From NCBI RefSeq assembly GCF_013315695.1, contig NZ_CP054353.1: a DNA stretch of 64,000 nucleotides. One strand, 5' to 3'. Numbering within the stretch: the first letter of the stretch is position 1; each line of letters begins with the position of its first letter. This DNA comes from Escherichia coli (GTDB lineage Bacteria; Pseudomonadota; Gammaproteobacteria; Enterobacterales; Enterobacteriaceae). Position numbers and translations under genes: made by a program. Below, in pieces: positions 26,745 to 52,777 of this stretch. Below the pieces are notes generated by a model. That model ran no database searches, was not told the origin of the DNA, and was given only the letters and a program-made list of their open reading frames with translations.

Positions 26745-26771
26745 CAAGTTCACGTAAAAAGGGTATCGACA

Positions 26772-26816: not shown

Positions 26817-26857
26817 AACGGGCAGTGTATTCACCATGCGTAAAGCAATCAGATACC

Positions 26858-26887
26858 CAGCCCGCCTAATTAGCGGGCTTTTTTTTG
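26858..26887 (+). terminator. trp attenuator (3:4 terminator hairpin)
   Basis: cagcccgcctaattagcgggc followed by T8. Confidence 0.9.
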
Positions 26888-26907
26888 AACAAAATTAGAG
26901 AATAACA

Positions 26908-31427: not shown

Positions 31428-31438
31428 GGAAAGGAACA

Positions 31439-32632: not shown

Positions 32633-33438
32633 TGGAACGCTACGAATCTCTGTTTGCCCGTTTGAAGGAGCGCAAAGAAGGCGCATTCGTTCCTTTCGTC
32701 ACCCTCGGTGATCCGGGCATTGAGCAGTCGCTGAAAATTATCGATGCGCTAATTGAAGCCGGTGCTGACGCGCTGGAGTTAGGCATCCCCTTCTCCGACC
32801 CACTGGCAGATGGCCCGACGATTCAAAACGCCACACTGCGTGCCTTTGCGGCAGGTGTGACCCCGGCGCAGTGCTTTGAGATGCTGGCACTCATTCGCCA
32901 GAAACACCCGACCATTCCCATTGGCCTGCTGATGTATGCCAACCTGGTGTTTAACAAAGGCATTGATGAGTTTTATGCCCAGTGCGAAAAAGTCGGCGTC
33001 GATTCGGTGCTGGTTGCCGATGTGCCCGTGGAAGAGTCCGCGCCCTTCCGCCAGGCCGCGTTGCGTCATAATGTCGCACCTATCTTTATCTGCCCGCCAA
33101 ATGCCGATGACGACCTGCTGCGCCAGATAGCCTCTTACGGTCGTGGTTACACCTATTTATTGTCGCGTGCGGGCGTGACCGGCGCAGAAAACCGCGCCGC
33201 GTTACCCCTCAATCATCTGGTCACGAAGCTGAAAGAATACAATGCTGCGCCTCCATTGCAGGGATTTGGTATTTCCGCCCCGGATCAGGTAAAAGCAGCG
33301 ATTGATGCAGGAGCTGCGGGCGCGATTTCTGGTTCGGCCATCGTTAAAATCATCGAGCAACATATTAATGAGCCAGAGAAAATGCTGGCGGCACTGAAAG
33401 CTTTTGTACAACCGATGAAAGCGGCGACGCGCAGTTAA
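32632..33438 (+). CDS. trpA: tryptophan synthase alpha chain
   Basis: 268-aa ORF overlapping trpB stop. Confidence 0.95.
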
Positions 33439-33442
33439 TCCC

Positions 33443-33470
33443 ACAGCCGCCAGTTCCGCTGGCGGCATTT
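33443..33470 (+). terminator. trp operon terminator
   Basis: cagccgccagttccgctggcggc hairpin followed by T-run. Confidence 0.8.
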
Positions 33471-33818
33471 TTACTTTCTTTAACGAAGCCGGAAAAATCC
33501 TAAATTCATTTATTATTTATCTTTTTACCGTTTCGCTTACCCCTGTCGAACGTCAACTTACGTCTTTTTTCCGCCCAACAGTAATATAATCAAACAAATT
33601 AATCCCGCAACATAACACCAGTAAAGTCAATAATTTTCTCTAAGTCACTTATTCCTCAGGCAATTGTTAATATATCCAGAATGTTCCTCAAAATATATTT
33701 TTCCTCTTTTTTCTCGTTACGCTTAATTTGACTAATTCTCATTTGCGACTAATTTTAATGAGTGTCGACACACAACACTCATATTAATCAAACAATGCAG
33801 CGCAACGGGAGAAATAAC

Positions 33819-33998
33819 ATGGCCGAACATCGTGGTGGTTCAGGAAATTTCGCCGAAGACCGTGAGAAGGCATCCGACGCAGGCCGTAAAGGCGGTCAGC
33901 ATAGCGGCGGTAATTTTAAAAATGATCCGCAACGCGCATCTGAAGCAGGTAAAAAATGCGGTCAACAAAGCGGTGGTAATAAATCAGGAAAATCCTGA
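33819..33998 (+). CDS. yciG: KGG-repeat stress protein YciG
   Basis: 59-aa ORF MAEHRGGSGNFAEDREKASDAGRKGGQHSGGNFKNDPQRASEAGKKCGQQSGGNKSGKS. Confidence 0.85.
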   Translation: MAEHRGGSGNFAEDREKASDAGRKGGQHSGGNFKNDPQRASEAGKKCGQQSGGNKSGKS

Positions 33999-34083
33999 TT
34001 CACCGTTCATTATTAATATCAGCTGATAAAGATAATTGCATCTGCGGGCCGTATGGCTCGCAGTGATTTCACTGGAGAAAAAT

Positions 34084-34584
34084 ATGAATATGAAGACCAT
34101 TGAAGATGTATTTATTCACCTGCTTTCAGACACCTACAGTGCAGAAAAACAATTAACACGTGCACTGGCAAAACTCGCTAGAGCAACATCAAACGAAAAA
34201 TTAAGTCAGGCTTTTCATGCGCACCTCGAGGAAACACATGGACAGATTGAACGTATTGATCAAGTTGTGGAATCAGAATCGAATCTGAAAATTAAGCGCA
34301 TGAAATGTGTGGCAATGGAAGGTCTTATTGAAGAAGCTAATGAGGTCATCGAAAGTACCGAGAAAAACGAAGTGCGTGATGCCGCACTGATTGCCGCAGC
34401 ACAGAAAGTCGAGCATTATGAGATTGCCAGTTACGGGACATTAGCGACGCTGGCTGAACAATTAGGTTACCGTAAAGCAGCTAAGCTTCTGAAAGAAACT
34501 CTTGAAGAAGAAAAGGCCACCGACATCAAACTAACTGATCTGGCCCTTAATAACGTAAATAAGAAAGCCGAAAATAAAGCCTGA
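34084..34584 (+). CDS. yciF: DUF892/ferritin-like protein YciF
   Basis: 166-aa ORF MNMKTIEDVFIHLLSDTYSAEKQLTRALAKLARATS... Confidence 0.9.
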   Translation: MNMKTIEDVFIHLLSDTYSAEKQLTRALAKLARATSNEKLSQAFHAHLEETHGQIERIDQVVESESNLKIKRMKCVAMEGLIEEANEVIESTEKNEVRDAALIAAAQKVEHYEIASYGTLATLAEQLGYRKAAKLLKETLEEEKATDIKLTDLALNNVNKKAENKA

Positions 34585-34629
34585 AATATGAACTTTAACT
34601 TTTAGTCATTTTATAAAGAGGACATTTTC

Positions 34630-34921
34630 ATGAATCGTATTGAACATTATCATGACTGGTTACGTGACGCCCACGCAATGGAAAAGCAAGCCGAATCTAT
34701 GCTTTAATCCATGGCCAGCCGTATAGATAATTATCCTGAACTACGCGCTCGTATTGAACAACATCTTAGTGAAACCAAAAACCGATTGTTCAACTGGAAA
34801 CTATTCTTGATCGTAATGACATTTCACGTTCAGTCATTAAAGATTCCATGAGTAAAATGGCTGCGCTTGGGCAGTCAATCGGTGGTATATTTCCTTCTGA
34901 TGAAATAGTCAAAGGCTCTAT
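34630..34921 (+). pseudogene. yciE: yciE pseudogene: in-frame TAA at codon 26, 1-bp deletion frameshift, 3' end removed by IS1
   Basis: MNRIEHYHDWLRDAHAMEKQAESML* then YciE-like sequence continues in the same frame (SMASRIDNYPELRARIEQHLSETKN), then shifts frame (…SVIKDSMSKMAALGQSIGGIFPSDEIVKGS) until the IS1 end. Confidence 0.8.
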
Positions 34922-34976
34922 GGTGATGCTGCCAACTTACTGATTTAGTGTATGATGGTGTTTTTGAGGTGCTCCA

Positions 34977-35252
34977 GTGGCTTCTGTTTCTATCAGCTGT
35001 CCCTCCTGTTCAGCTACTGACGGGGTGGTGCGTAACGGCAAAAGCACCGCCGGACATCAGCGCTATCTCTGCTCTCACTGCCGTAAAACATGGCAACTGC
35101 AGTTCACTTACACCGCTTCTCAACCCGGTACGCACCAGAAAATCATTGATATGGCCATGAATGGCGTTGGATGCCGGGCAACAGCCCGCATTATGGGCGT
35201 TGGCCTCAACACGATTTTACGTCACTTAAAAAACTCAGGCCGCAGTCGGTAA
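34977..35252 (+). CDS. insA: IS1 InsA
   Basis: Identical translation to copy 1. Confidence 0.95.
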
Positions 35253-35674
35253 CCTCGCGCATACAGCCGGGCAGTGACGTCATCGTCTGCGCGGAAATGG
35301 ACGAACAGTGGGGCTATGTCGGGGCTAAATCGCGCCAGCGCTGGCTGTTTTACGCGTATGACAGGCTCCGGAAGACGGTTGTTGCGCACGTATTCGGTGA
35401 ACGCACTATGGCGACGCTGGGGCGTCTTATGAGCCTGCTGTCACCCTTTGACGTGGTGATATGGATGACGGATGGCTGGCCGCTGTATGAATCCCGCCTG
35501 AAGGGAAAGCTGCACGTAATCAGCAAGCGATATACGCAGCGAATTGAGCGGCATAACCTGAATCTGAGGCAGCACCTGGCACGGCTGGGACGGAAGTCGC
35601 TGTCGTTCTCAAAATCGGTGGAGCTGCATGACAAAGTCATCGGGCATTATCTGAACATAAAACACTATCAATAA
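35171..35674 (+). CDS. insB: IS1 InsB
   Basis: Identical translation to copy 1. Confidence 0.9.
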
Positions 35675-35888
35675 GTTGGAGTCATTACCGTGATAAACAT
35701 CCGGTTTCTTCCACCATCGCACCGGACAGGCGACTATGAGGGGACAACGCCGCGCTCCGTTAACGCGGTAAACCCCGGTGTGTATCGTTTTTGATTATCC
35801 CCGCACACTCGCGCAGAGGAGTCTCCCTGTCGGGCTGCGGTCTCTGTTAATGAGGGAATACAGCGACGATACGGCGCATCAACAAAAC

Positions 35889-36356
35889 TTATTTCAGGCA
35901 CTGAGTACGGATATATTCCTGCGCCCCTTCCAGTTGCTTCTGCATCGTCATCAGCCGCTCTCTGAGGGTGAAATAATCCCGTGTAACGGTGTCTGCCAGT
36001 TGGGGGCCGGTTGCATTATCCACGCGGGCGGTGCCGGTGGCTTCACGCACGGGACCTGGACAGGTGGCGTTGATACGCAGGCGCTTACGACCAGCGGCAA
36101 CGTCAGCGCGAAGAGTTTCATTTTCAGCTTTCGCATCAGCTAACTCCTTCGTGTATTTTGCATCGAGCGCAGCAACATCACGCTGACGCATCTGCATGTC
36201 AGTAATTGCCGCGTTCGCCAGCTTCAGTTCTCTGACATTTTTGTCGCGCTGGGCTTTGTAGGTAATGGCGTTATCACGGTAATGATTCAGCCCCAGACTA
36301 AGCGCACCACAGGCCACCAGCAGGGCAATGATGACCACGCACAGTACGCGGTTCAT
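35889..36356 (-). CDS. i-spanin Rz
   Basis: 155-aa ORF …[70 protein letters not shown]… closely resembles lambda Rz. Confidence 0.9.
35951..36136 (-). CDS. o-spanin Rz1 lipoprotein (embedded in Rz, +1 frame)
   Basis: 61-aa [25 protein letters not shown]…[32 protein letters not shown]; lipobox and Pro-rich, lambda Rz1-like. Confidence 0.85.
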
Positions 36357-36357
36357 T

Positions 36358-36456
36358 TCACCACCAGCGTATCTGACCGATGAAATAACCGGAGGCCATA
36401 ATCACAAACACCAGCCAGATAAGAATGAACTTCCAGGTGGATAATTTTTCAGCCAT
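36358..36456 (-). CDS. possible 32-aa single-TM peptide between endolysin and Rz
   Basis: [35 protein letters not shown] read from sequence; stop two bases before the Rz start codon; below ORF-track cutoff. Confidence 0.3.
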
Positions 36457-36654
36457 CACTCGAATCTCCCGAATCAGTTTGCTAAAATCAAACACACTTT
36501 CTCCTTTGACTTTTCCGGAGTCAGGAAACACAAAACCCCGCTTGGTGCCAACAAACGGGGTTTTTACTTTTATTCACTTACGTTTCGCCAGTTCGCAGGA
36601 TTTCGTGTTATCCGCCCGCGTGGCCATGCCTTATTTTTCAGCAAAATATTCTGC

Positions 36655-37188
36655 TTATCTGTCGATTCCCCAGCACGCCAGCGCGCTCTCCTGGTCACGA
36701 CGGGATACCTGACCATAACAGTTGTTTGAGCGGATACGGCAGTCTCTGCCACCGTCCTTAATCCACCAGCGAATCGCCTCACACGCTCCCCTGCGATCAC
36801 CTGCATTAATTCGTTTATAAAACGTCGACGGGAAACACTTACCGGGACCAATGTTGTACGGACAGAATGACGCGATCCCCGCTTTCTGGGGTTCACTCAA
36901 TGGCACTCTGATGTTTTTCTCCACCCATGCCAGCGCCTCATCACGCTCAATGGCGTTAACCCGGTCGCATTTTTCCTTCGACAACTTCATGCCCGGAACG
37001 ACAGGTTTGCCATCCACCAGGATGGCACCGCGGCAGATGGTCCAGATACCCGCACCATCACGGTATGCCGTGGTGTGGTTACCTTCCTTTTCATCCAGAA
37101 ACTGGTCGAGAATGTCAGGCGCAGGCGCACCAGCGGCAATCAGCGCCAGAACGGCAGCCGACAGGCCGTATCTGATTTTTGCGTTCAT
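36655..37188 (-). CDS. phage endolysin (GH24 lysozyme with N-terminal signal-anchor-release-like segment), RrrD-like
   Basis: 177-aa ORF MNAKIRYGLSAAVLALIAAGAPAPDILDQFLDEKEGNHTTAYRDGAGIWTICRG… closely resembles cryptic-prophage lysozyme RrrD. Confidence 0.9.
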   Translation of the reverse strand: MNAKIRYGLSAAVLALIAAGAPAPDILDQFLDEKEGNHTTAYRDGAGIWTICRGAILVDGKPVVPGMKLSKEKCDRVNAIERDEALAWVEKNIRVPLSEPQKAGIASFCPYNIGPGKCFPSTFYKRINAGDRRGACEAIRWWIKDGGRDCRIRSNNCYGQVSRRDQESALACWGIDR

Positions 37189-37293
37189 GGATATTTATCA
37201 GGATTTATCGGTTTCTGAGCCCTGGATATGTTTATCAGTTCCAGCCTGTTGCCTCAGGCTGCTAACAGGTCAATACAATCATGAGGATTATTT

Positions 37294-37566
37294 ATGGACA
37301 ATAACACCATTTCTCTACAGGAGTTGCTCGACAGCATTTCCAGGCTTCGGGAAGACGTGAATACCCTTACCGTCGCCTTCTCATATCTGGCATTCTCAAT
37401 TCCAAGGGAACAGATGCAATCAACGCTGGCATCAATCCAGTTTGAATCATGCAATCCCAAATGGTCTCAGGAACAACAAGACTCTTTCAGGCGGCTTGCT
37501 GTATTACTGGATGAAAAATATGCTGGTAAAATTACCATTTCGGCGGACTCTTCAGAGAACCCGTAA
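37294..37566 (+). CDS. hypothetical 90-aa protein, antisense-oriented inside lysis cassette
   Basis: ORF with strong SD (gaggatt, 6 nt before ATG); convergent with orf114, overlapping it by 35 nt. Confidence 0.45.
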   Translation: MDNNTISLQELLDSISRLREDVNTLTVAFSYLAFSIPREQMQSTLASIQFESCNPKWSQEQQDSFRRLAVLLDEKYAGKITISADSSENP

Positions 37567-37876
37567 TTATTCCCGGTAGTTTTCCTCTGTAGGTTATCAA
37601 CACATCCTGCGCCTCTAAAATTACGGGGCGCTTTTCCGGCGACTGCTCATCCCCTTCACATAACCCGGCAGCAACATCCAGGAAGACCTGTCTGATGCTC
37701 CTTCTGGCTGCTGCCTCATAAAACTCCAGCGCGGCACCTTCAACACGGTCCAGCGAGATGTCCAGGTCAAAAATTTCACCGTCAAAGCGTTTTTTGTCCC
37801 GTAACGCTAAAGTTACCGTAACTTTATTCTCAAAATTGCGGATCCCTTTCACAATCAGTTCATAGTTTTGAGTCAT
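37532..37876 (-). CDS. hypothetical 114-aa phage protein between holin and endolysin (position of ydfR-type genes)
   Basis: ORF immediately downstream of holin stop, co-directional with lysis genes. Confidence 0.55.
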   Translation of the reverse strand: MTQNYELIVKGIRNFENKVTVTLALRDKKRFDGEIFDLDISLDRVEGAALEFYEAAARRSIRQVFLDVAAGLCEGDEQSPEKRPVILEAQDVLITYRGKLPGIITGSLKSPPKW

Positions 37877-37880
37877 TGAA

Positions 37881-38096
37881 TTACTCTCCCCGTGCAGCCT
37901 TACGACGGTCCTCTCTGATTTTGAAATACAGGTTAGTCAGATATGTCAGCAGCCCAAACAGCAGACTCCCCAGCACGCCTATTGCCGCCCACTGAGACGG
38001 GGAAACCCTGTCCAGCAACTGCAGGAACCAGTAGCCCGTTCCCACCGCTGACGTGGTGTATGACACACCTGTTGTGATTTTTTCCATCTGGTACAT
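37881..38096 (-). CDS. phage 21-type pinholin S with dual-start motif
   Basis: [71 protein letters not shown] resembles S21 (MKSMDKISTG…); start set at dual-start Met within ORF 37881..38174. Confidence 0.85.
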
Positions 38097-38246
38097 ACCC
38101 CGTCTCCCGTTATCCGGAAGCTGACAACAATAAAAAAAGCCACCAGTTAAGTACTGATGGCTCTGATAACTCATGCAGGCATCTCAGACGACCCACTGAC
38201 ACTACCGGTGAGTTTAACGATACCTTCCATTTGGCTGGCTCACTTT

Positions 38247-40100
38247 TTATGATGATGCCGGTGCATTTATCTCCAGCACCAGACTTTCTATCTCAACGCC
38301 ATACGCTGCATTTTTGGTAATATCCGTCAGCGTCAGCGCATTCAGCCCCAGTGTCAGACTGTCTTTTATGACCTGGAATGCCGGGCCAGCCACTCCATTC
38401 AGTTTCGGAGTAACCGTGGCACTGCCGGCGGTGAACACCAGCTCCAGCGTCTGCCAGTCGTTACTGTAATTCCCGAACTCGCCCAACTTTGTGTTTCCTG
38501 CTTTCTTGTGATGCATCAGATTCAGTTTGCCGTCTGTGGTCTGGGTGAAGAACGACATCAGGAACGGGTTACCAGTCCCGGTCATCGCCACGACGTCAGG
38601 TAACGCTACATCGGTATACAGATAAATTCCCAGACCGAACTGGTTGTTGGTCAGTGCGCCTGACAGTCGAAACTTACAGCTCAGTCTGCCACCCCGTGTC
38701 AGCAGGGAGACTGCGTCATCCACCGGGCGCGTCAGGGACCAGGCTTTATTGCTCTGCTTGGTGATCTTAAATACACCATCTGACAACTGAATTCCGCCAT
38801 TCTTAATGCTCCAGCCCTGCGCAGCAGCGTCTCCGGCTGTCGGCAACAGGGAGATTGTGCGTATGGATGCATCTTCAGACGGCCCCGATGGCGTGTCGCC
38901 GCCGGGCGAGGGTTTGATTTCCGGTGCCTTACCACTAATGAAGGCTAAGGTGCGACCGGCTACGTTCAGAATAGCAGTTGCCATACGATCGGGAATAATG
39001 CCACGACGCGCCCATGAGCTGAAATGCGTCGGGCGATTTGATGATACCCAGTTTTTGTTCGTTCGGGATGCCGAACCGTAATAACCAGACCCGGCAATAT
39101 CAGGATCTTCTGACGGGTTGTTTGTCGGTGTATTAACTCCGCTACCATCGGTCATAAAGGGAACAAAATAAATCTGCTGGGATTCTTTACCTTTATATGC
39201 ACCATATACCACTTCATATTGCGTACCGTGTTCTTGTTTCCACGCGTATGTCGTGTCGCCACAAATCCAGGGGACTGATGCCGGACTTCCACCGTGACAC
39301 TGCGCCGCCAGCCCGGCAAGGTCAGCACGGAACTGCTGTACCATTGCAAGAAATGCTGCTGGCTGCTGGGCGTAACTGGCATTCGTCATATCGAATTCCC
39401 CCTGCATCCAGCATATCGCCAGCAAAACGTTTTTCGGGTTTTTCTGCAATGCTGCCTTCGTGCGGAAAAGCAGATCCTGATATAACGGCTTACCCACTCC
39501 CCAGCGAGCCGAATCCTGACTGGCTCCCGTGGACTCGCTGAATGTCCCCTCCGTGCCCTGGGTGAATGCCGAACCACCACGACAGCATGGTACCAGCAGG
39601 ATCCCCGCATTATTAGGGATATACGGAAGCAGTTTTTTGGCAATATGTAAGCCCTGTCCGACACAGCCGTACTGCCCTTTGCTCAGGTCAGCCCGGGGAT
39701 GGTTAATCGTACTCATATCCTGAACATCATGCAGACAATGGTCAGCAGGAATGATGTCGTTAAATACGCATACTTCACCACCGGGAGTCACTGTGTTACG
39801 ACGGGCCAGTTGCTTAATGCGCGGATGGGGCGCATCGTATGAATCCGGAAGCGGAAGCCCTTCACCGTAAGCCATGGCATTGGATTGCCCGGCCAGTACG
39901 ATGACGTAGTACCACTCCGGCTCAGTTGCACCACTGACGACCACATCACCTTCTGCTGCAATCGCCTGCATCAGGGTATAAGGGGTTATGGCCACCGGAC
40001 TACCAAACGGCTGCCAGCCCTCCTTCAGTTTTTGTGTCAGTCGTTTCGCAAGGTCTGACGGCGATGCCGCCCTGACCACGTCATAGTGTTTAAATGCCAT
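38247..40100 (-). CDS. prophage sialate O-acetylesterase NanS-p (N-terminal DUF1737-like, SASA/SGNH esterase domain)
   Basis: 617-aa ORF; N-terminus MAFKHYDVVRAASPSDLAKRL…; VIVLAGQSNAMAYGEG esterase motif; located between tRNAs and holin as in Stx-type phages. Confidence 0.8.
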   Translation of the reverse strand: MAFKHYDVVRAASPSDLAKRLTQKLKEGWQPFGSPVAITPYTLMQAIAAEGDVVVSGATEPEWYYVIVLAGQSNAMAYGEGLPLPDSYDAPHPRIKQLARRNTVTPGGEVCVFNDIIPADHCLHDVQDMSTINHPRADLSKGQYGCVGQGLHIAKKLLPYIPNNAGILLVPCCRGGSAFTQGTEGTFSESTGASQDSARWGVGKPLYQDLLFRTKAALQKNPKNVLLAICWMQGEFDMTNASYAQQPAAFLAMVQQFRADLAGLAAQCHGGSPASVPWICGDTTYAWKQEHGTQYEVVYGAYKGKESQQIYFVPFMTDGSGVNTPTNNPSEDPDIAGSGYYGSASRTNKNWVSSNRPTHFSSWARRGIIPDRMATAILNVAGRTLAFISGKAPEIKPSPGGDTPSGPSEDASIRTISLLPTAGDAAAQGWSIKNGGIQLSDGVFKITKQSNKAWSLTRPVDDAVSLLTRGGRLSCKFRLSGALTNNQFGLGIYLYTDVALPDVVAMTGTGNPFLMSFFTQTTDGKLNLMHHKKAGNTKLGEFGNYSNDWQTLELVFTAGSATVTPKLNGVAGPAFQVIKDSLTLGLNALTLTDITKNAAYGVEIESLVLEINAPASS

Positions 40101-40330
40101 GAATCCTCCCGGGCGGGATAATGTTGTGAGTCAGATAAGGAGCAGGCTGAAGTCCGGAAGTTACAGGACAATGGCAGAAGGGAGACTACAGCCCGCAATT
40201 CGAAAAAGACCGCGCAGTTGCGCAGAGTGATTACTATGGGGTATTATTCGCCAGCTGAAATATTACTTCACGTTTTATTGTTTATTCCTTGCCGCCCGCG
40301 TCTCCCAGCGCGGGCTTTTTTTGTCCATAA

Positions 40331-40568
40331 GAAAGCCCCTCCGGAGAGGGGCTAAAGCCGCGTATCTGTATCATCATGCACATGGTGCCGGGTGCCTCCC
40401 GGTGAGTTCAGCCCGGTGCCACTAAACCCGCGTCATTCTCGTTTTGATAATCAGAGATTATACCGTCACCAGTCGCCCCTCCGCTCAGGGGGATTCACCA
40501 TGCGAAATTTTTTTAACAAATGCCCAGTCTGACAGGCAACTGTCAACTTACTGAATTGTGAGCAACAT
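40331..40568. repeat. hairpin-rich noncoding repeat unit, copy A
   Basis: Shares blocks aaagcccctccggagaggggct, catggtgccgggtgcctcccggtga, cccctccgc.cagggggattcaccatgc, ttttaacaaa, ctgaattgtgag with copy B. Confidence 0.7.
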
Positions 40569-40815
40569 AGCATTTAACGGGGAACCTGTTTTCTGCAGTA
40601 AAAAGGCCCACCGGAGCGGATGGGCCTGGAAGGATAGCGGTCATGTGATGCCGGTTTCCCGGTAACTCAGCACCGGTATCTGAGTCAACGTTTTCTCTAC
40701 TGGGTCATTTCCGATACGCCCTGCCTGCTGACAGGCTTTCATCACATCTGAAAATATAGCACCCTGACTGATACTGTAGTACCTAAGGTTCCAGAAACTG
40801 TGATGTATCCGGCAC

Positions 40816-41036
40816 AGAAAAGCCCCTCCGGAGAGGGGCTGGAGAGTGGCGCTATGTGCCATTGCATGGTGCCGGGTGCCTCCCGGTGAATTCAGTACCA
40901 GCACCTGAATCCGCGATTATCCCATATACCTACTCGCTGATTGCCCCTCCGCACAGGGGGATTCACCATGCCAGTTTCTTTTAACAAACTCCCCGCAAAC
41001 CAGACAACAGTCAACCGCCTGAATTGTGAGACATTT
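40816..41036. repeat. hairpin-rich noncoding repeat unit, copy B
   Basis: Degenerate direct repeat of copy A (~485 bp period); a third partial copy of the ccgg-hairpin block lies at ~40690..40740. Confidence 0.7.
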
Positions 41037-41074
41037 AAAAAAAGCCCGCAAAAGCGAGCCAGGGAAAATAAGTG

Positions 41075-41151
41075 TGGCGCGTTGTACTGGATTCGAACCA
41101 GTGACCGATTGCTTAGAAGGCAATTGCTCTGTCCGGCTGAGCTAACAACGC
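41075..41151 (-). tRNA. tRNA-Arg (anticodon UCU)
   Basis: Manual fold: acceptor GCGTTGT/ACAACGC, D-arm GCTC..GAGC, anticodon stem ATTGC/GCAAT with loop CTTCTAA, T-arm ACTGG TTCGAAT CCAGT, CCA end. Confidence 0.9.
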
Positions 41152-41164
41152 AGGATACAGATAA

Positions 41165-41241
41165 TGGACCGCCTTCGGGGACCCGAACTCCGCGCAACCA
41201 GCTTCGAAAGCTGGCGCTCTTTCCTGATGAGCTAATGGCGG
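41165..41241 (-). tRNA. tRNA-Arg-like (anticodon UCG), possibly degenerate
   Basis: Perfect anticodon stem CCAGC/GCTGG with loop TTTCGAA, but one mismatch each in acceptor and T stems and T-loop TTCGGGT lacks the conserved A58. Confidence 0.5.
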
Positions 41242-41248
41242 TATGTGA

Positions 41249-41324
41249 TGGTGGCCCTTGCTGGATTTGAACCAGCGACCTGGCGATTATGAGTCGCTCG
41301 CTCTCACCACTGAGCTAAAGGGCC
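41249..41324 (-). tRNA. tRNA-Ile2/Met type (anticodon CAU), ileX/ileZ-like
   Basis: GGCCCTTTAGCTCAGTGGTGAGAGCGAGCGACTCATAATCGCCAGGTCGCTGGTTCAAATCCAGCAAGGGCCACCA; near-identical to remembered E. coli tRNA-Ile2 (k2CAU). Confidence 0.85.
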
Positions 41325-41373
41325 GGGAGCAGAATAATAATGGTGCGTAATTAATTCTGCAATCTCATCCGTT

Positions 41374-42423
41374 TCAAACGATTAAATCCTGAACTTCCCT
41401 GACTGTCTGCTCAAAACGTCCGGTCTCCAGTTCAACGCCAATCGCACGACGCCCAAGCGCCAGTGCCGCTTTTACCGTTGAACCTGAGCCCATAAAAAAA
41501 TCTGCAACCAGGTCACCCGGACGACTGCTTGCGCTGATTATCTGCTGCAGCATTTCTGCCGGTTTTTCGCACGGATGTTTCCCGGGATAGAACTGCACCG
41601 GTTTATGTGTCCACACATCCGTGTACGGCACCTGCGCCGTCACACCAAAATACCGCCGCAGATGCTTATATTCACTCTGCAGCTCCACATACTGCCGGTT
41701 CAGTGACGTATACGTATCCACCAGCTGGTGGTGGGGCTTTTCCAGTTCACCGCGCTGATGTTTCTCTTCTGCCACCCGGGCAAACAGCGACTGTAATTTC
41801 AGATAATCGCTTTCGTTCGGTAGCTGCCACTGACTGGCACTGAACCAGTGCGACACCATGTTTTTCTTTCCTGTGGCATCTGCAATCTGTTTTGCCGTTA
41901 TCCCCAGGGCAGCGCGCGCATCACGAAAGTAAGAAATCAGCGGGGCCATCACATGCTGTTTCAGTGCACTGCCCTTCGCCGCATACCCGGCATCTTTCGG
42001 ACGATACGGCCCCTGATAATGTTCCGCGAACAGAATGCGCTCTGTGGCGGGGAAATACGCCCGCAGGCTTTCCTTGTTGCATCCGTTCCAGCGTCCGGAC
42101 GGCTTCGCCCAGATAATATGGTTCAGCACACTGAAGCGTTCACGCATCATGATTTCGATATCAGATGCCAGGCGATGACCACAGAACAGGTAAAGACTTC
42201 CGACAGGTTTCAGCACCCGCCAGAACTGCGCCAGACACTGGTCCAGCCACTTCAGGTAATCATCGTCGCCCTTCCACTGGTTATCCCAGCCCTCAGGCTT
42301 CACTTTAAAGTACGGCGGGTCCGTGACTATCAGGTCAACAGAATTTTCGGGTAACGACCGGATAAATTCCAGGCAGTCGGCGTTGATTAACTCACAACTG
42401 GATATTTTTACAGTATTAAGCAT
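41374..42423 (-). CDS. orphan DNA methyltransferase (N6-adenine/N4-cytosine class, DPPY motif)
   Basis: 349-aa ORF with DPPY catalytic motif (LIVTDPPYF) and C-terminal AdoMet-binding FxGSGST motif; no adjacent restriction endonuclease gene. Confidence 0.8.
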   Translation of the reverse strand: MLNTVKISSCELINADCLEFIRSLPENSVDLIVTDPPYFKVKPEGWDNQWKGDDDYLKWLDQCLAQFWRVLKPVGSLYLFCGHRLASDIEIMMRERFSVLNHIIWAKPSGRWNGCNKESLRAYFPATERILFAEHYQGPYRPKDAGYAAKGSALKQHVMAPLISYFRDARAALGITAKQIADATGKKNMVSHWFSASQWQLPNESDYLKLQSLFARVAEEKHQRGELEKPHHQLVDTYTSLNRQYVELQSEYKHLRRYFGVTAQVPYTDVWTHKPVQFYPGKHPCEKPAEMLQQIISASSRPGDLVADFFMGSGSTVKAALALGRRAIGVELETGRFEQTVREVQDLIV

Positions 42424-42573
42424 GGATCATTAAGCCTGTCTCTGATAGGCTCATTCTGCTTTTGCGCAAAGCAGTGGGCCTGAGGTTTGCTTGTGAACCC
42501 AACGCATGAGCAGATGGCTGGTGGGTGCCCCTAACACCCACCAGCCGCCCATTTACCACAAATAAAAAAGCCT

Positions 42574-42858
42574 TCAGGACTGAAGGCGTCTGTAACAACC
42601 GAACTGATAGTCTGCCAGACCCGCCATAACCAGCTGGGTCAGTATTAACTGGCAGCGTTCGCGTGAAAGGTAAGTATTCTGCGCTATCTCCCCGACTGTC
42701 GCCGGTTCGGTAACGCTTAATTCATTAAACACCACTCTGGCGGTTTCTGTCATATCCTGCTGTTTTAGCATGTCTTTTTCCTTTTTCCGGTTAACGTGAC
42801 ATACCAATAACTCTTGTCGAAAAAGCCAGCAAGCTGAAAGACCCGTATTCGCAACCAC
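42574..42858 (-). CDS. hypothetical small phage protein (possible HTH)
   Basis: ORF between the Q-like gene/terminator and the methyltransferase; start may be an internal Met (MLKQQDMTETAR…). Confidence 0.4.
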   Translation of the reverse strand: MVANTGLSACWLFRQELLVCHVNRKKEKDMLKQQDMTETARVVFNELSVTEPATVGEIAQNTYLSRERCQLILTQLVMAGLADYQFGCYRRLQS

Positions 42859-42896
42859 CAGCGTGTTTACTGTACTGACGCGATTTTGGGCATAAA

Positions 42897-42930
42897 AAAA
42901 AACCGCCTGACGGCAGTTTTTTTTCTTACT
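42897..42930 (-). terminator. candidate tR'-like terminator downstream of Q-like gene
   Basis: A-run, short GC hairpin (ccgcctgacggcag), T-run; reads as terminator on both strands. Confidence 0.45.
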
Positions 42931-42985
42931 TTGCCATCGCGTACAAAATCGGCAAAATATCAGATTTATATGAAACGTACGCTAT

Positions 42986-43675
42986 TTAATTGACTTTTGC
43001 AATATCTCGTCGTGAAAAAGTCGCTTTTTGTTGCGCTCTTATTTTCACGGTGCAAATCACAGATTCTCTATCGAGACTCTTAAAAATATCGCACATCTCA
43101 CGCCAGTAGTTCGCATAATTATGGCTCCAGTTATCAGGCTTAACTCCACACAGTCTGGCAAGCTCCTGTCTCTGGTAGACCTCACACCCGGTAATCCATC
43201 CTCTGACATCCTGTGCCGCCAGCCAGATCAACTTCTTCACGCGCTCCTGCGTTTTCCCTGCAATTTTTCTGGTGCCGTACCGGGTTTTAAATTCATTCCA
43301 CACCCACTGCGTTATCGCGATCTGATATTCCCAACAAATACTCCCGCTGTAACACCACAACAACCAGGCTTTATGATGTTCTTCAAGAGACAGAACAGCC
43401 CGCCGCCACGATGATGTCGAAAACTCAACCGGACTGACGAGAGGAATTGACACCCCCTTCGCCAGCGATTGCTTTCCCGGGATTGGTGGATTATCCCGCG
43501 TTATCATTTTTCCAGTCACTTCATCGCGGTACCGGATTTTTTTACGCCTGTAACGCCCTGTATCAAACATGGCATTCTCCTGCCAGGCCTCAAGCTGCCC
43601 TTTTGTTGATCCACTCAAATCGGCGGTGGCAATCATGAGTTGCTCACGAACAAACTGTAAATACTGGTTATTCAT
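42986..43675 (-). CDS. putative late-gene antiterminator (Q-like), assigned by position
   Basis: 229-aa ORF immediately downstream of rusA and upstream of terminator and late genes; sequence itself not confidently recognised. Confidence 0.4.
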   Translation of the reverse strand: MNNQYLQFVREQLMIATADLSGSTKGQLEAWQENAMFDTGRYRRKKIRYRDEVTGKMITRDNPPIPGKQSLAKGVSIPLVSPVEFSTSSWRRAVLSLEEHHKAWLLWCYSGSICWEYQIAITQWVWNEFKTRYGTRKIAGKTQERVKKLIWLAAQDVRGWITGCEVYQRQELARLCGVKPDNWSHNYANYWREMCDIFKSLDRESVICTVKIRAQQKATFSRRDIAKVN

Positions 43676-44037
43676 GCGTACTCCAGTTCTGTGATTTTTA
43701 TCCCCAACCGCCCACCAGGAACAAGCTGACCGCGCACAATATTAATTTCATCAAACTGCTCGTCGTCTATGAGCAGCCCCGCATGCGTCAGTACATCCAG
43801 TGGTGCCTTCAGGATATTGTCCAGGTCACGACGGCGCTTATCCGGTGGCTCTGCAATAATTTCTATTGCCGGCCTTCCGGACAGGTTTAATTTCAGTTGC
43901 TGCTGGCGAACAATAAGCGCCACATCACGGCGATAACGCTCACCGACTTTTGATACAAAATATGTGCTGCCACGACGTCGCCAGTAAGTGTTCACCGTTG
44001 GCGGGTAAGGCAAAACAAATTCTATGCGTTCAGTCAT
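43672..44037 (-). CDS. rusA: Holliday-junction resolvase RusA
   Basis: 121-aa ORF with RusA motifs (LPYPPTVNTYW…, PDKRRRDLDNILKAPLDVLTHAGLLIDD). Confidence 0.85.
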   Translation of the reverse strand: MTERIEFVLPYPPTVNTYWRRRGSTYFVSKVGERYRRDVALIVRQQQLKLNLSGRPAIEIIAEPPDKRRRDLDNILKAPLDVLTHAGLLIDDEQFDEINIVRGQLVPGGRLGIKITELEYA

Positions 44038-45093
44038 TTATGCTTTCCACTTCAGAACACCCGAATTTCTCGCGTGCATTAAAAAACGAATCAGCAACAA
44101 CAGCTGGCTGCCGTGTTTTTCTTCAAAATCTTTTACCCCGGCGTGTAGTTCGCTATGGCATTTACGGCACAGCGGAATAACAAACAAATCATCAGCCTTT
44201 GTTCCCATCCCTCCCAGTCCATGACCAATGATGTGATGCGGATCATCTGCCTGATTGCCACACGTCATGCATTTCTGCGTTTTTACCCAACGCGTGTATA
44301 CAGGCATCTCTTCCCGTTGTGATTTCTGGCGCTGGAGATACTGAGCCGGTGACTCCGGATCAACGGCAATGCTGACCACCGTCTTTTCCTGTGGCGGGTT
44401 TTGCTGGTGGGCGTGAGGCAGCGGCGCAAGATTTTTTGTGCGCTGCTTCAGTATGCTGGTGGCGGTCTGCTCTCCCGGTACGATGTCGCTTTCACGGTAC
44501 ATTGAGCGGATTTTTTCCGCACGCAACCCCAGCGAACGACGTAATACCGCTTCCGGTAGCGCGTCCGCCACCTGATTGCGGACCGCCCACCAGGATAATT
44601 CAGCCAGCGATAATTCCCGTTCCTGCGAGCCATTCATTGCATGGCGTATGACGTCAATCATCCATGCAGACAGGTTTTGGTGAGCAAGTTGCCCGAGTGA
44701 TTCGGAGGTCTGGTCGCGCAGCTGGTTGTCGCAGTGCCAGCACAACACCATTGCGCCGGTACCATAACGGTGAATGACGGTTTCACTGTGGTGATAATCG
44801 CCGTGTGGCCACTGGCAGGATTTAACATGGCGCAGTAACCAGTCAGACAATGCGCCAGCGCCACCAGCAGCACGAATCACTCGTTCGTCGCTGAAAAATG
44901 GCAGTAATGATTTATCCTCCGCCAGCGGCTGGCGAACGGCAGGAACGACCCCGGACGGCAGATTACGCATGCTTTTCGGTTCCGGCTCCACCAGTACCCG
45001 GGTATTGTGGAATACCGGCATGGATTCACGGCCCGGCTTAACGATCACCAGCCCGAGTTCCGGTACCAGAACAGGTCGAAGTAATACCCGCAC
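44038..45093 (-). CDS. nin-region protein, DUF968-like with Cys/His-rich C-terminal region
   Basis: 351-aa ORF; C-terminus …CMTCGNQADDPHHIIGHGLGG…CRKCHSELH…; translationally coupled to upstream orf90. Confidence 0.45.
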   Translation of the reverse strand: MRVLLRPVLVPELGLVIVKPGRESMPVFHNTRVLVEPEPKSMRNLPSGVVPAVRQPLAEDKSLLPFFSDERVIRAAGGAGALSDWLLRHVKSCQWPHGDYHHSETVIHRYGTGAMVLCWHCDNQLRDQTSESLGQLAHQNLSAWMIDVIRHAMNGSQERELSLAELSWWAVRNQVADALPEAVLRRSLGLRAEKIRSMYRESDIVPGEQTATSILKQRTKNLAPLPHAHQQNPPQEKTVVSIAVDPESPAQYLQRQKSQREEMPVYTRWVKTQKCMTCGNQADDPHHIIGHGLGGMGTKADDLFVIPLCRKCHSELHAGVKDFEEKHGSQLLLLIRFLMHARNSGVLKWKA

Positions 45094-45094
45094 G

Positions 45095-45367
45095 TTACCT
45101 CCAGATGCGTTGCTGGAATGTGCGGGACGGACGCGGTGGGCGTTCAGAGTAAGGAAGCCTGACGGAGATTATCCAGTGACGATAATCGAGGCTGAGGGCT
45201 TTCTTAATCTCGTATCCGCGTCTGCGGTAGTTATGAATTAGCCATTCGGCCTGTTCTTCAGTACATGGTGGGTGTTGGTACCAGTCGGTTTTAAATGCGT
45301 GTGAACGCCGCCCATGCCGGATGGCAAGGTCGGTATCAGAATTGTGAAATTTGGTTTTGTGCGCCAT
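45095..45367 (-). CDS. hypothetical nin-region protein
   Basis: 90-aa ORF whose stop abuts the next start. Confidence 0.45.
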   Translation of the reverse strand: MAHKTKFHNSDTDLAIRHGRRSHAFKTDWYQHPPCTEEQAEWLIHNYRRRGYEIKKALSLDYRHWIISVRLPYSERPPRPSRTFQQRIWR

Positions 45368-45534
45368 CTGTTTTCTCTGCTGGCGCAGCAGGTGTCAGGT
45401 GTTCAGGCTGACGTGCGAATTGTAAACCAGAATGCCAGAAAAAAACAAAACCCGCCGAAGCGGGTTAAGTGCGGGTGCGTTGAGGATGCCTGACACATCA
45501 GAGGTGGCGAGGGATTTCTCCCCCGCCAGGTCTC

Positions 45535-49738: not shown

Positions 49739-50164
49739 TTAGTGCATCACCACAGCATTCCCTGCCGGGCCGCCGCGATTCATCTGGTCATACAAAACAA
49801 CCGCTGACGCAACAAAATCATCGACATCCTTCACCAGCCGATCCCTCCGTTCGACGATCTCACGGTAATATTCAGAACTGTGGCTGCGCATACGGGCCAC
49901 CAGCAAAGGCGGCATCGCCTTTTCGATCGCCGGTAACAGAGCCTGCATTTTTTCAACAGCATCAGGGGGGGCTTTCTCTACCCAGCGGAAAATTTTCTGG
50001 GTATTGCGAGCCAGGGCTTCCGGATGGCTGTCGTCATACAGTTCCGGGAACGTCATACCCAACTCAAAATAAGCCTGGGTTATTCCAGCTGCTGGAACTT
50101 TTTCGCCATCAGGACGCGCCCAGGCATTCATCGCCATGCGGATGTGTTCATGCTTGATTTTCAT
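49739..50164 (-). CDS. YdaT-like protein (cII-position gene)
   Basis: 141-aa ORF beginning MKIKHEHI…, as remembered for Rac YdaT. Confidence 0.65.
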   Translation of the reverse strand: MKIKHEHIRMAMNAWARPDGEKVPAAGITQAYFELGMTFPELYDDSHPEALARNTQKIFRWVEKAPPDAVEKMQALLPAIEKAMPPLLVARMRSHSSEYYREIVERRDRLVKDVDDFVASAVVLYDQMNRGGPAGNAVVMH

Positions 50165-50429
50165 GAATCAAGCTCCTAGAAAGTGGTTGTGTTAACGTTT
50201 TGGTATCTTCCAGCTCGGGCCAAATATTCATCCAATCAAAAGGCCTTAGTTGCTGACGTGTAACTTCACCATTACTGGCTCGCTCAATAAGGACACATAA
50301 CGATGCCCCTAACACTTGACCTTTACTCAATGCCTTTCTTAGATAACCGATGCTGGTACCACACTCGCATGCAAACATACGCTGTTCATCTGACGAAAGA
50401 GAATTGAGAAATATTCTTAATTCTTCCAT
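50148..50429 (-). CDS. Cro-like/YdaS-family HTH regulator
   Basis: 93-aa ORF with HTH (ECGTSIGYLRKALSKGQ) and YdaS-like C-terminus (QQLRPFDWMNIWPEL); divergent from repressor gene. Confidence 0.7.
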   Translation of the reverse strand: MEELRIFLNSLSSDEQRMFACECGTSIGYLRKALSKGQVLGASLCVLIERASNGEVTRQQLRPFDWMNIWPELEDTKTLTQPLSRSLIHENQA

Positions 50430-50456
50430 AGCTACTCCTTAGTAAACACAGCAAAG

Positions 50457-50493
50457 AATACCCACAGGTAAACAAAAGCCAATACCCACAGGT
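50457..50493. promoter_or_regulatory. right operator region (two aatacccacaggt sites within gtaaacaa/ttgtttac inverted repeat)
   Basis: Repeated 13-mers at 50457..50469 and 50481..50493 in the 100-bp divergent intergenic region. Confidence 0.6.
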
Positions 50494-50529
50494 TGTTTAC
50501 CTTGCGGTAATCGCATCTATTATTTACCT

Positions 50530-50949
50530 ATGGACAAATATGAATTTAGACGACAGCAACTCATCAAAATTCGTGATGAGAAATGCGATGGTAAAGCGGT
50601 TAACGTGGCCAGAAAGATCGGGCGCGAGCCTTCTTATGTATCAAGAATGTTGTACCCAGAGGGGAAAAAGGGAAAAAAACGGATCGCTGATGATATGGTG
50701 GAGATTATCGAAGAGTCCTTTGGGTTACCCCGGGGATGGATGGATGGTATCGTTTCATCATCAACGAACACAGCCTCCAGTTATGAAACAAGGGTTCTAA
50801 CGCCACGACAACGTATTTTTTTAGATCTCTTAGACGAACTGCCAGAAAGTGAAGCGGATAAATTATTAAAAACTCTTGAAGAGAAAAAACAGTATTACAA
50901 TATGATCTACGAAGAAATCCGTAAAAAGAAAGCACAAAACGCATCATAG
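50530..50949 (+). CDS. prophage repressor, RacR-like (HTH, no S24 peptidase domain)
   Basis: 139-aa ORF with HTH (AVNVARKIGREPSYVSRMLY); divergent from cro-like gene. Confidence 0.7.
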   Translation: MDKYEFRRQQLIKIRDEKCDGKAVNVARKIGREPSYVSRMLYPEGKKGKKRIADDMVEIIEESFGLPRGWMDGIVSSSTNTASSYETRVLTPRQRIFLDLLDELPESEADKLLKTLEEKKQYYNMIYEEIRKKKAQNAS

Positions 50950-50989
50950 CTCACCAAACAACTAGTCACCAGTTAAGACACCGCAAAAT

Positions 50990-51028
50990 TTACCCATGGG
51001 TATTTACTTTTTAAATACCTATGGGTAT
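50990..51028. promoter_or_regulatory. left operator-like palindromes (tacccatgggta, atacctatgggtat)
   Basis: Palindromes sharing the accca.(g)ggt core with the right operator, just upstream of the leftward early operon. Confidence 0.5.
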
Positions 51029-51213
51029 CCTTCTTTTCATACCAACCCACCCCGCCCCACAGAATGCAGGGCAATACTTCGAGTTACCAGGCAGTGGTCA
51101 GGGGTTAAGTAGCCAGCCCGAGGCGTAAGAACATGACGGCAGGGTTCAACTTTAATAACTATGCAGCAGGTTTTTGTTCCGCTACCCCGGCGTTAAGGGG
51201 AAATGAGGTCAGC

Positions 51214-51366
51214 ATGGATACTATCGATCTTGGCAACAGCGAATCTCTGGTATGTGGCGTGTTCCCCAACCAGGACGGTACGTTCACCGCGATGACGTAT
51301 ACCAGAAGCAAAACGTTTAAAACTGAAGCTGGCGCGCGTCGCTGGTTAACCAGAAACACTGACTGA
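51214..51366 (+). CDS. hypothetical small early protein (YdaF-like by position)
   Basis: 50-aa ORF MDTIDLGNSESLVCGVFPNQDGTFTAMTYTRSKTFKTEAGARRWLTRNTD with RBS; alternative start at 51133. Confidence 0.45.
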   Translation: MDTIDLGNSESLVCGVFPNQDGTFTAMTYTRSKTFKTEAGARRWLTRNTD

Positions 51367-51779
51367 TGAGGTTGACGATGGAATTTAAAGATTTACCAGT
51401 ACCATTCCAGGAAATGGCATCGAATGTGGTTCGCTCTCAACTGGCGACTCTTGACCTGAGTACCGTAGAAAAGGAAACCATCGATACTATATCCGGTAAC
51501 GTGCGTCGTGCCTTTATAGGTCTGTATGAAGAGAAGCGCCTATTCGGCGGACAGAATTCGCCTGAAAACAAGAATCAAGCAAATGATGAGAAGCTGAAAC
51601 ACATTATCGCCTTACTTTTGGAAGACGCAAAACGTCTACAGCAACTGGAACCAAATGCAGGCACAGAGGCCCGCATTTGGATTGCCATGAAATCACTCAA
51701 ATGTGAAAGCAGTGATTATTTCAAAACAACAATTAAAACTACTCAACTTTCGGGAGAGCTACTGAAGAAATTGCCATAA
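51366..51779 (+). CDS. hypothetical early protein
   Basis: 137-aa ORF whose start overlaps the previous stop. Confidence 0.5.
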   Translation: MRLTMEFKDLPVPFQEMASNVVRSQLATLDLSTVEKETIDTISGNVRRAFIGLYEEKRLFGGQNSPENKNQANDEKLKHIIALLLEDAKRLQQLEPNAGTEARIWIAMKSLKCESSDYFKTTIKTTQLSGELLKKLP

Positions 51780-52056
51780 GAGCATGGTCTTTCTCTTGTT
51801 CTGCAAGATGAGCATTAATACCTGGTATGGTTTTTTCAAATTTATCTATCTGTTGAATAACAACTTCGCGGTATACGTTTGTTTTTGTACCACCAAGCGC
51901 AGCCGTTAATGCAGAAAGCATATTTAGTATCATATCAGTGCGATATGAAAGAATCCTGATAGCTTCATCTTGTTCTTCAATAATAGATTGCAGGGCCTCA
52001 ATTTGCTTTTTATCCATTTCACCCTCCTGAGGGTTGGTAATTAAGGAGTTCTCCAC
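51739..52056 (-). CDS. hypothetical protein, opposite orientation within early-left operon
   Basis: 105-aa ORF convergent with orf137; predicted coiled-coil-like composition. Confidence 0.4.
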   Translation of the reverse strand: MENSLITNPQEGEMDKKQIEALQSIIEEQDEAIRILSYRTDMILNMLSALTAALGGTKTNVYREVVIQQIDKFEKTIPGINAHLAEQEKDHALMAISSVALPKVE

Positions 52057-52588
52057 GGGTCAGGTGGAGTGCGTGCGCCGGACACGGGTGAGCATCCGGC
52101 ACTGACAGCTTACTGAAAGGATATGTCCCTGAAAAGTCAGGGCATAACGCGAAAGCGCACGGCGAAATTGGTCTCTCTGTACGGTGTCGTTAAATTTAGT
52201 TCGACCGTGCGCTTCCGGTTGTGGCACTCCGCGAAATGGCGCGGCGGTAAGTATGGCTGGGGTTTCCTCCATTGCTCCAGAAAATGCACCGGGTTGTCAG
52301 GTTGACCATACGCTTAAGTGACAACCCCGCTACAACGCCCTCTGTTATCAATTTTCTGGTGACATTTGGCGGTATCAGTTTTACTCCGTGACTGCTCTGC
52401 CGCCCTTTTTAAAGTGAATTTTGTGATGCGGTGAATGCGGCTATGCGCACGCGGAACAGTTAAAGCAGTAAGGCGGTATTTTACGGGCGTAACGAGCATC
52501 AACTAACCCGGCGTTAATTGTTAACTGGTTAACGTCACCTGGAGGCACCAGGCACTGCATCACAAAATTCATTGTTGAGGACGCGATA

Positions 52589-52777
52589 ATGGAAACGTTA
52601 TTACCAAACGTTAATACGTCTGAAGGTTGTTTTGATATTGGTGTTCTGCTCAGTAACCGGGAGTTTACTGAAGATGCCATTAATATGAGGAAATATGAGC
52701 CTTATCTGCTCAATGATAATTCCATACTTTCCCGAATTGCTCTTCTTGAACTTGGTATTTTCGGAGAACGTCAATGA
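52589..52777 (+). CDS. hypothetical small protein
   Basis: 62-aa ORF with RBS; stop overlaps next start (ATGA). Confidence 0.45.
   Translation: METLLPNVNTSEGCFDIGVLLSNREFTEDAINMRKYEPYLLNDNSILSRIALLELGIFGERQ

Follow-up and report, generated by a model that had tools for sequence, protein, structure and literature searches.

A class of lambdoid immunity regions is known from the prophages Qin and Rac of Escherichia coli K-12 and CP-933P of E. coli O157:H7. In Qin, with the pair DicA/DicC, the Cro-like gene is divergent from the repressor gene, DUF1391 (ydfA), the RNA DicF and dicB belong to the same gene order, and one set of operators is present in the divergent region and another at the leftward promoter, just past the repressor gene. 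Rac carries RacR/YdaS/YdaT. CP-933P carries PaaR2/YdaS/YdaT, with a YdaS-type Cro and a YdaT-type CII equivalent divergent from a peptidase-less repressor (PMC8630535, PMC9986795), and has a leaderless-type promoter and repeats at the right operator (OR) and at the promoter PL (PMC8630535). Short, non-cleavable repressors are also found in the Gifsy modules of Salmonella, a class that has been proposed to take in DicA and RacR (PMC3121763). CI of phage mEp043 and the S24 (LexA-family) repressors of Enterobacterales are proteins of 221-242 amino acids (aa) with a peptidase domain (PF00717) and an Ala-Gly hinge. Here we describe an immunity region in a 64,000-nucleotide stretch of E. coli DNA (contig NZ_CP054353.1; hereafter the window), in which a 139-aa repressor joins a DNA-binding head of the mEp043 type to a C-terminal tail of the DicA type.

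The locus is a heteroimmune member of the Rac/Qin/CP-933P class. It has the Qin gene order, a repressor of similar size (about 135-139 aa) that likewise lacks S24 and ends in a homologous tail, and, as in Qin, operators flanking the repressor gene at either end. On the other hand, the head is unrelated to that of DicA, which matches HTH_3 (expectation value (E) 1.3e-16) whereas the window head matches no Pfam family, the repeats are TTAGT/ACTAA-type in Qin and TACC-N4-GGTA here, and the window has a YdaS-type Cro gene followed by a YdaT gene and no rem gene. CP-933P shares the YdaS-type and YdaT-type genes, the exact TTGATT-N6-AATCAA repeat at the ydaS/ydaT junction, the peptidase-less repressor, the leaderless-type promoter and the placement of its repeats, but its operators are 18-bp repeats with the half-site consensus GTTTAGTAA, and its paaA2-parE2 toxin-antitoxin pair is not found behind the window repressor. 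With Rac the locus has in common the layout, a near-identical leftward leader, a short repressor without S24 and a YdaT protein of 30% identity (K-12 YdaT, E 2e-14). The repressors, however, are without detectable similarity (BLASTP against K-12 RacR, b1356, gave E = 2.3 and no meaningful alignment), and the Rac operators are TTAGGC/GCCTAA-type. An earlier annotation made from the letters and their open reading frames (ORFs; the sequence-only reading) had called the repressor RacR-like and proposed a motif comparison with the Rac operators; neither likeness was found. The Gifsy modules differ in their LexA-controlled dinI-antirepressor locus, which lies downstream of the replication genes and is absent from the window. 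The mEp043 CI and S24 repressors resemble the window system in the head (65-80% identity), in the consensus, number, spacing and offsets of the operators and in the Cro neighbour, but the window protein carries a 50-aa tail instead of the peptidase.

We estimate the probability at about 80% that a Rac/Qin-type lambdoid prophage inserted by ompW has its immunity module here and that the module acts as a bistable switch like that of lambda. The assignment as a lambdoid immunity region, already made by the sequence-only reading, is supported. The features are collected in Table 1.

Table 1. Predicted and annotated features of the immunity region and its surroundings (window coordinates; strand given as + or -, with a point where no strand is assigned).
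Feature	Position	Strand	Remarks
OR1, TACCCACAGGTA	50459..50470	.	Exact palindrome; start 71 bp before repressor ATG
OR2, TACCCACAGGTT	50483..50494	.	One mismatch, imperfect right half; centre about 41.5 bp upstream of repressor ATG
OR3, TACCTTGCGGTA	50498..50509	.	Exact palindrome; start 32 bp before ATG; within PRM spacer
OL site a, TACCCATGGGTA	50991..51002	.	Exact palindrome; abuts PL -35
OL site b, TACCTATGGGTA	51016..51027	.	Exact palindrome; within PL spacer, overlaps -10
Repressor gene, 139 aa (WP_000362153.1, 'hypothetical protein')	50530..50949	+	Full-length match to phrog_5736 'transcriptional regulator', E 6e-70
DNA-binding head, residues 1-73	50530..50748	+	Helix-turn-helix (HTH) at helices 23-30 and 34-40
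DicA-type tail, residues ~88-139	50791..50946	+	Short helix and long helix; presumed dimerisation module
Putative PR of Cro-like operon	50455..50482	-	-35 TTGGCT (50482-50477), 16-bp spacer, -10 TATTCT (50460-50455)
PRM-like promoter	50496..50523	+	TTTACC-16-TATTAT; only promoter reported by scan
Putative PL	51003..51031	+	-35 TTTACT (51003-51008), 17-bp spacer, -10 TATCCT (51026-51031)
RNA hairpin from both OL sites	50991..51036	+	16-bp stem, 5-nucleotide loop, then UCCUUCUUUU; terminator scan match
Cro-like (YdaS-type) gene, 93 aa	50148..50429	-	Pfam YdaS_toxin 25.8 bits (below cut-off 30); BLASTP against YdaS E 1e-6
YdaT-type (CII-equivalent) gene, 141 aa	49739..50164	-	Pfam YdaT_toxin 31 bits (cut-off 21)
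Predicted YdaT site, TTGATTttcatgAATCAA	50154..50171	.	TTGATT-N6-AATCAA, exact, sole window match; junction of Cro-like and ydaT-like genes, PRE-like position
Conserved leader of leftward operon	51039..51130	+	Marks mosaic boundary of immunity module
DUF1391 gene (YdfA/YdaF-like)	51214..51366	+	First of leftward operon; Pfam DUF1391 E 6.6e-27; start per RefSeq annotation

The common element of the operators is a 12-bp palindrome, TACC-N4-GGTA. Four exact copies occur in the window, starting at 50459, 50498, 50991 and 51016 and thus all within 50459-51027; shuffled windows contained 0.25 exact copies on average, and none of 100 shuffles gave four. The motif with one mismatch is not enriched window-wide (15 found, 12.3 expected). 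For this reason only the exact sites and OR2 were counted as operators, and the case for OR2 rests on its conserved position. Three sites lie in the interval that separates the Cro-like gene from the divergently transcribed repressor gene, with a centre-to-centre distance of 24 bp between OR1 and OR2, and the other two, the left operator (OL), lie at the leftward promoter, 25 bp apart and on both sides of TTTACT. A literature search with six operator sequences returned unrelated primer matches only.

Most of what the sequence-only reading had stated about these motifs stands. The divergent region is indeed 100 bp long (50430-50529), and the two AATACCCACAGGT sites placed there are exact, at 50457-50469 and 50481-50493, although the third site, TACCTTGCGGTA at 50498-50509, had been overlooked. 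Similarly, the second copy of aatacccacaggt is present, while the imperfect palindrome of which it is part, TACCCACAGGTT at 50483-50494, had escaped notice. The palindromes past the repressor gene were found as described, TACCCATGGGTA at 50991-51002 and ATACCTATGGGTAT covering 51016-51027.

The positions of the sites are conserved among relatives of the repressor head. The compared set comprised nine fetched loci and phage mEp043, ten loci in all, and covered Salmonella, Edwardsiella, Pantoea, a Klebsiella-type locus, Serratia, Yersinia and metagenomic contigs besides the phage. TACC-N4-GGTA was present upstream of the repressor ATG in each of them. In seven of the ten loci an exact equivalent of OR1 begins 72-73 bp upstream of the ATG, and in L007 and L012 it begins at 61 bp, a shift of about 11 bp that is due to a difference in the called starts; L008 is atypical in its site offsets. 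The OR3 equivalent starts 32-33 bp before the ATG in seven loci and is exact in six, and most loci have a weaker site at about -47 with a conserved CAATACC left half. Furthermore, most loci (8-9) exhibit a pair of sites 25-26 bp apart by a -35/-10 pair, 0.8-2.3 kb past the repressor start. Judged by their palindromic form, their overlap with promoters and these conserved positions, the five sites are real and behave as operators of a lambda-style prophage switch, as the sequence-only reading had suspected of the motifs on both sides of the repressor gene.

The layout of the sites is the same whether the repressor bears S24 or the tail, and the Cro-like neighbours of all related repressors are homologous, with 52-69% identity to the window Cro-like protein. 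Phage Tritos and Qin, which have only the repressor tail in common with the window, contain other repeats and not a single TACC-N4-GGTA site. Since these loci combine the same tail with a different head and lack the sites, operator specificity goes with the head and the Cro-like gene and not with the C-terminal half of the repressor. The comparison provides strong indirect evidence that the sites are the operators, from which we infer binding.

No Pfam family, S24 (Peptidase S24) included, matched the repressor even at E<=1, and the 139 residues contain no Ala-Gly dipeptide. The AlphaFold2 model is all-helical (mean predicted local distance difference test score 83.7), with an HTH domain at residues 3-63, a disordered linker at 77-87, and a short and a long helix at 92-138. 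The lack of an S24 autopeptidase, which the sequence-only reading had pointed out, is thus upheld, and RecA-stimulated self-cleavage is excluded on sequence grounds because the peptidase is missing.

Where the peptidase would be expected becomes apparent from the relatives of the head. Among the 120 best head relatives, 79 are at least 200 aa long, and 76 of these 79 contain Ala-Gly within residues 70-130. The head shares 65-80% of its residues with the N-terminal parts of 221-242 aa repressors that carry PF00717, and is 65% identical to mEp043 cI (228 aa), and in the alignment the PF00717 region of the relatives is replaced by a 50-aa helical tail. This tail matches that of K-12 DicA with an hhalign probability of 97.5% (E 8e-12) and in BLASTP with 33% identity over 46 aa (E 2e-7); BLASTP of the repressor against DicA aligns the tails only. 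In a tail alignment it is 63% identical to the tail of Tritos CI, and the roughly 50 aa that follow the HTH show the pattern of DicA-type tails, LxP..ELLELF..LPE.E...FEELL. By these alignments the repressor is a natural chimera of an mEp043-type, S24-cleavable CI head and a DicA tail. Given that the peptidase half is replaced by the tail, the induction signal is predicted to differ from that of the S24 relatives.

A word-indexed search with the tail alone returned near-identical fragments only, and an exhaustive profile search was therefore needed. Run against 1.84 billion representatives, it recovered 252 clusters at E<=1e-3, in nearly all of which the tail is C-terminal in HTH proteins of 110-170 aa. 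When 100 tail proteins were scanned, 62 contained HTH_3, 10 a YdaS-type domain, 9 Phage_CI_repr, 5 P22_Cro and none S24. As judged from this distribution, the tail is a portable module that is combined with many HTH types and has no Pfam family of its own. In a linked-dimer model the two tails pack together (predicted template modelling score 0.60), and we infer that the tail takes over the dimerisation role of the S24 domain; no fold family can be named for it because the linked-dimer model has no match in the PDB. A profile search of the PDB by sequence gave nothing below E 0.098.

Several E. coli clusters (P0007-P0019) contain frameshifted versions of the repressor. Their reading begins at 50540 in the +1 ORF and returns to the main frame where the A/G-rich run GGGGAAAAAGGGAAAAAAA lies, at 50661-50679 (region 50540-50682), so that slippage may have inactivated the DNA-binding head repeatedly in some genomes.

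The promoters fit the arrangement of the operators. The -10 hexamer of PRM ends 6 nucleotides before the repressor ATG, with no separate Shine-Dalgarno sequence, and a TAnnnT hexamer 5-6 nucleotides before the ATG, again with no separate Shine-Dalgarno sequence, is found in seven of the ten compared loci. The arrangement is of the leaderless type, like that of lambda cI and paaR2 (PMC8630535), and transcription of the repressor gene probably begins at the AUG itself or right beside it. PR and PL were read from the sequence; each matches 8 of the 12 consensus positions, one fewer than the scan threshold of 9. OR1 is located within the spacer and -10 of PR, the weaker promoter of the divergent region, and OR2 abuts the -35 of PR. 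At the position of PL, relatives have TTGACA, TTGACC or TAGACA as -35 and a TATATT-like -10.

The two OL sites can also be read as the arms of an RNA hairpin, which raises the question whether the palindromes past the repressor gene are simply a Rho-independent terminator and not operators. The stem of 16 bp, the 5-nucleotide loop, the TCCTTCTTTT that follows and the low minimum free energy (-23.4 kcal/mol, z -5.2) would all suit a terminator. However, each arm is itself a copy of the TACC-N4-GGTA palindrome, of which the divergent region has three, and two adjacent copies give such a hairpin automatically. Moreover, the pair is conserved by a -35/-10 in eight relatives without the T-run, 0.8-2.3 kb past the repressor start, and in mEp043 a classical terminator is present separately, ahead of the OL pair. 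We consider it very improbable that termination is the only role of the pair. Operators that double as a terminator at the window locus alone are possible; with low confidence, the hairpin could end the repressor transcript shortly ahead of the PL start and so insulate the leftward operon, which would at most be an added role here, and the T-run after it is not conserved in relatives.

The non-coding leader that follows PL shows about 95% conservation in comparison with Rac and phage Tritos, in spite of their different immunity genes (compared segments: L002 4524-4626, minus strand, and L013 4459-4558). Because near-identity to Rac and Tritos sets in from about 51039, the immunity module ends at about the PL start. 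A put/nut-like RNA in the leader (51034-51135) was considered and rejected, as the segment is no more stably folded than shuffled sequences (z -0.24) and exhibits no covariation.

On the other side of the repressor gene, the Cro-like protein matches phrog_35 (E 1e-22), and the YdaT-type protein also matches phrog_163 'CII-like activator'. In CP-933P, YdaT was footprinted on the OM site, which has the same sequence as the repeat at 50154-50171 and the same location at the ydaS/ydaT junction (PMC9986795). By analogy YdaT is predicted to bind this repeat, and a PRE-like establishment route is likely since the repeat sits where the OM site lies in CP-933P.

From these elements a working scheme for the switch can be put forward. 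A dimeric repressor and the divergent Cro-like protein would both recognise TACC-N4-GGTA. Repressor bound to OR1 and OR2 would block PR, and with it the Cro-like, YdaT-like and replication genes, while repressor on OR2 could touch RNA polymerase at PRM. OR3, being inside PRM, would allow autorepression or repression by Cro. The two OL sites would silence PL and the leftward operon of DUF1391, DicF, dicB, exonuclease, xis and int, and YdaT bound to TTGATT-N6-AATCAA would probably drive establishment transcription. Induction would then be a Cro-driven flip after repressor activity is lost, or would follow from an antirepressor encoded elsewhere in the genome.

The last step deserves closer attention. 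The sequence-only reading had presumed that a repressor incapable of self-cleavage needs an antirepressor or another route. The need for an antirepressor is plausible, but the window contains neither a LexA box (CTGT-N8-ACAG, none in 64 kb) nor a Rem homologue (tblastn, nothing at E<1 in the window and the intact prophage), and the annotation of the intact prophage lists no dinI or antirepressor gene. In view of these negative results the most likely route of derepression, by analogy with DicA, would be a Cro-driven bistable flip or instability of the repressor, perhaps with antirepressors acting in trans. For DicA a DicC-dependent flip that is independent of Rem and RecA has been described, which occurs in about 1% of the cells and is raised by heat and urea (bioRxiv 10.1101/2023.04.14.536235).

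A dedicated antirepressor of the Rem, GfoA (Gifsy) or Ant type, encoded by another prophage or by an unrecognised gene and possibly docking on the tail, is a less likely, though serious, alternative. Rem causes a 165-fold derepression in the case of DicA, whose tail is of the same type (bioRxiv 10.1101/2023.04.14.536235), and the short repressors of Gifsy, with which DicA and RacR have been classed, are inactivated by LexA-controlled antirepressors acting in trans (PMC3121763). A Bro-N protein is encoded in the leftward operon of a same-tail relative from Yersinia, and the best Foldseek match of the repressor model in the PDB is Rep of the SPC32H Rep-Ant complex (5D50). The latter likeness, however, is weak (E 1.6e-3) and runs through the head and not the tail, the searches of the window and the intact prophage described above all argue against a resident antirepressor, and the slot that separates hokD from the DUF968 gene, occupied by rem in Qin and by an ImmA/IrrE gene in Tritos, consists here of about 170 bp of non-coding DNA.

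This slot (window 45095-45534; L016 2180-2773; L018 1335-3476) varies in content. In mEp460_ev081 it holds rem and a 90-aa ORF, in Tritos a 204-aa ORF, an ImmA/IrrE-HTH gene and a 90-aa ORF, and in the window a 90-aa ORF only (phrog_1212); possibly the slot represents a hot spot of modules for induction or accessory functions. The 90-aa ORF of the window (45095-45367) was considered as a Rem analogue and rejected, since it sits beside rem in mEp460_ev081 and has no similarity to rem.

The prophage that carries the module occupies 35.7-57.4 kb of the window, adjoining ompW, and is 99.9% identical to a prophage of E. coli AF3 (NZ_OZ547117). According to the AF3 annotation the gene order is Q, RusA, a DUF968 gene, hokD, QueH, DnaC-like and O-like replication genes, YdaT-like, YdaS-like, the divergent 'hypothetical protein', DUF1391, dicB, a 3'-5' exonuclease, xis and int. 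An Rfam match to DicF RNA lies upstream of dicB at 52354-52405 (77 bits, E 5e-16), and by the presence of this RNA the leftward operon is of the Qin/Rac type. The only other result of the Rfam scan was a sub-threshold STnc100 match at 52403-52621, adjoining DicF (31 bits against a gathering threshold of 47), and the immunity region itself had no match. A 105-aa ORF (phrog_18692, hypothetical) lies antisense within the leftward operon at 51739-52056 (minus strand) and overlaps the end of a 137-aa ORF at 51366-51779.

In the window copy the head and tail genes of the phage are gone, and an IS1 element is directly followed by the lysis region. Missing are roughly 25 kb that in NZ_OZ547117 lie between the IS1 and the lysis region and encode tail, head and terminase functions. 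One IS1 is found at 21153-21920, and another ends at 35689 (regions 20379-35689 and 35690-44828).

This IS1-associated deletion, together with the frameshifted gene versions in other E. coli, could be taken to mean that the 139-aa protein is merely a decayed S24 repressor of a dead prophage and that the switch is non-functional. The C-terminal part, however, is a conserved tail of the DicA/Tritos CI type and not a truncated peptidase, intact prophages bear the same module, operators and promoters are intact, and Tritos, with the same tail, forms plaques (PMC9928086). In addition, a survey of 5,426 complete E. coli genomes detected a 611-bp core of the module in 821 (15%), in 642 of them at >=99% identity, and in a single copy in nearly all. 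Decay is the least probable of the alternatives and, in our view, highly unlikely. Within the core, the window strain and strain 9000 differ solely in the length of an A-run upstream of OL site a (50985-50989), which has 4 A in the window and 5 A in many other genomes, strain 9000 among them.

Several points weigh against the bistable-switch interpretation. The operator, promoter and dimer assignments for the 139-aa protein rest on sequence and models; every promoter assignment except that of PRM is below the scan threshold, and the linked-dimer model was improvised and resembles nothing in the PDB. OR2 is not a perfect palindrome, and the relatives have a degenerate right half at this site. 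The head and the Cro-like gene always co-occur, and the comparison of loci therefore cannot tell which of the two proteins binds each site, or whether both do. No inducer was found by the LexA-box, Rem and annotation searches. Finally, as the window copy has lost its head and tail genes it is a remnant, in which the switch may now govern only host-affecting genes, e.g. dicB and DicF.

The established picture of lambdoid switches is not changed by this locus. What the repressor documents is an exchange of S24 for a DicA tail on a constant head, and the tail itself has so far been uncatalogued, being without a Pfam family despite its occurrence in at least 252 protein clusters. With the repressor, five operators and promoters named, the control of DicF, dicB and hokD becomes predictable in carrier strains. 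In addition, the availability of the same head and operators with either S24 or the tail offers a direct test of the role of the C-terminal part in the induction signal and in the stability of lysogeny.

Tentatively, and with the odds rather against it, the tail and S24 might be interchangeable cassettes on one immunity specificity consisting of head, operators and Cro, with the tail serving both as dimer surface and as Rem-like docking site. If this were true, homoimmune phages would differ only in their inducer: the prophages of Salmonella, Pantoea and Edwardsiella and phage mEp043 would represent an SOS-cleavable form, and the present E. coli prophage an SOS-blind form that depends on bistability or an antirepressor. 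A swap of the tail would then rewire the induction signal and leave immunity unchanged.

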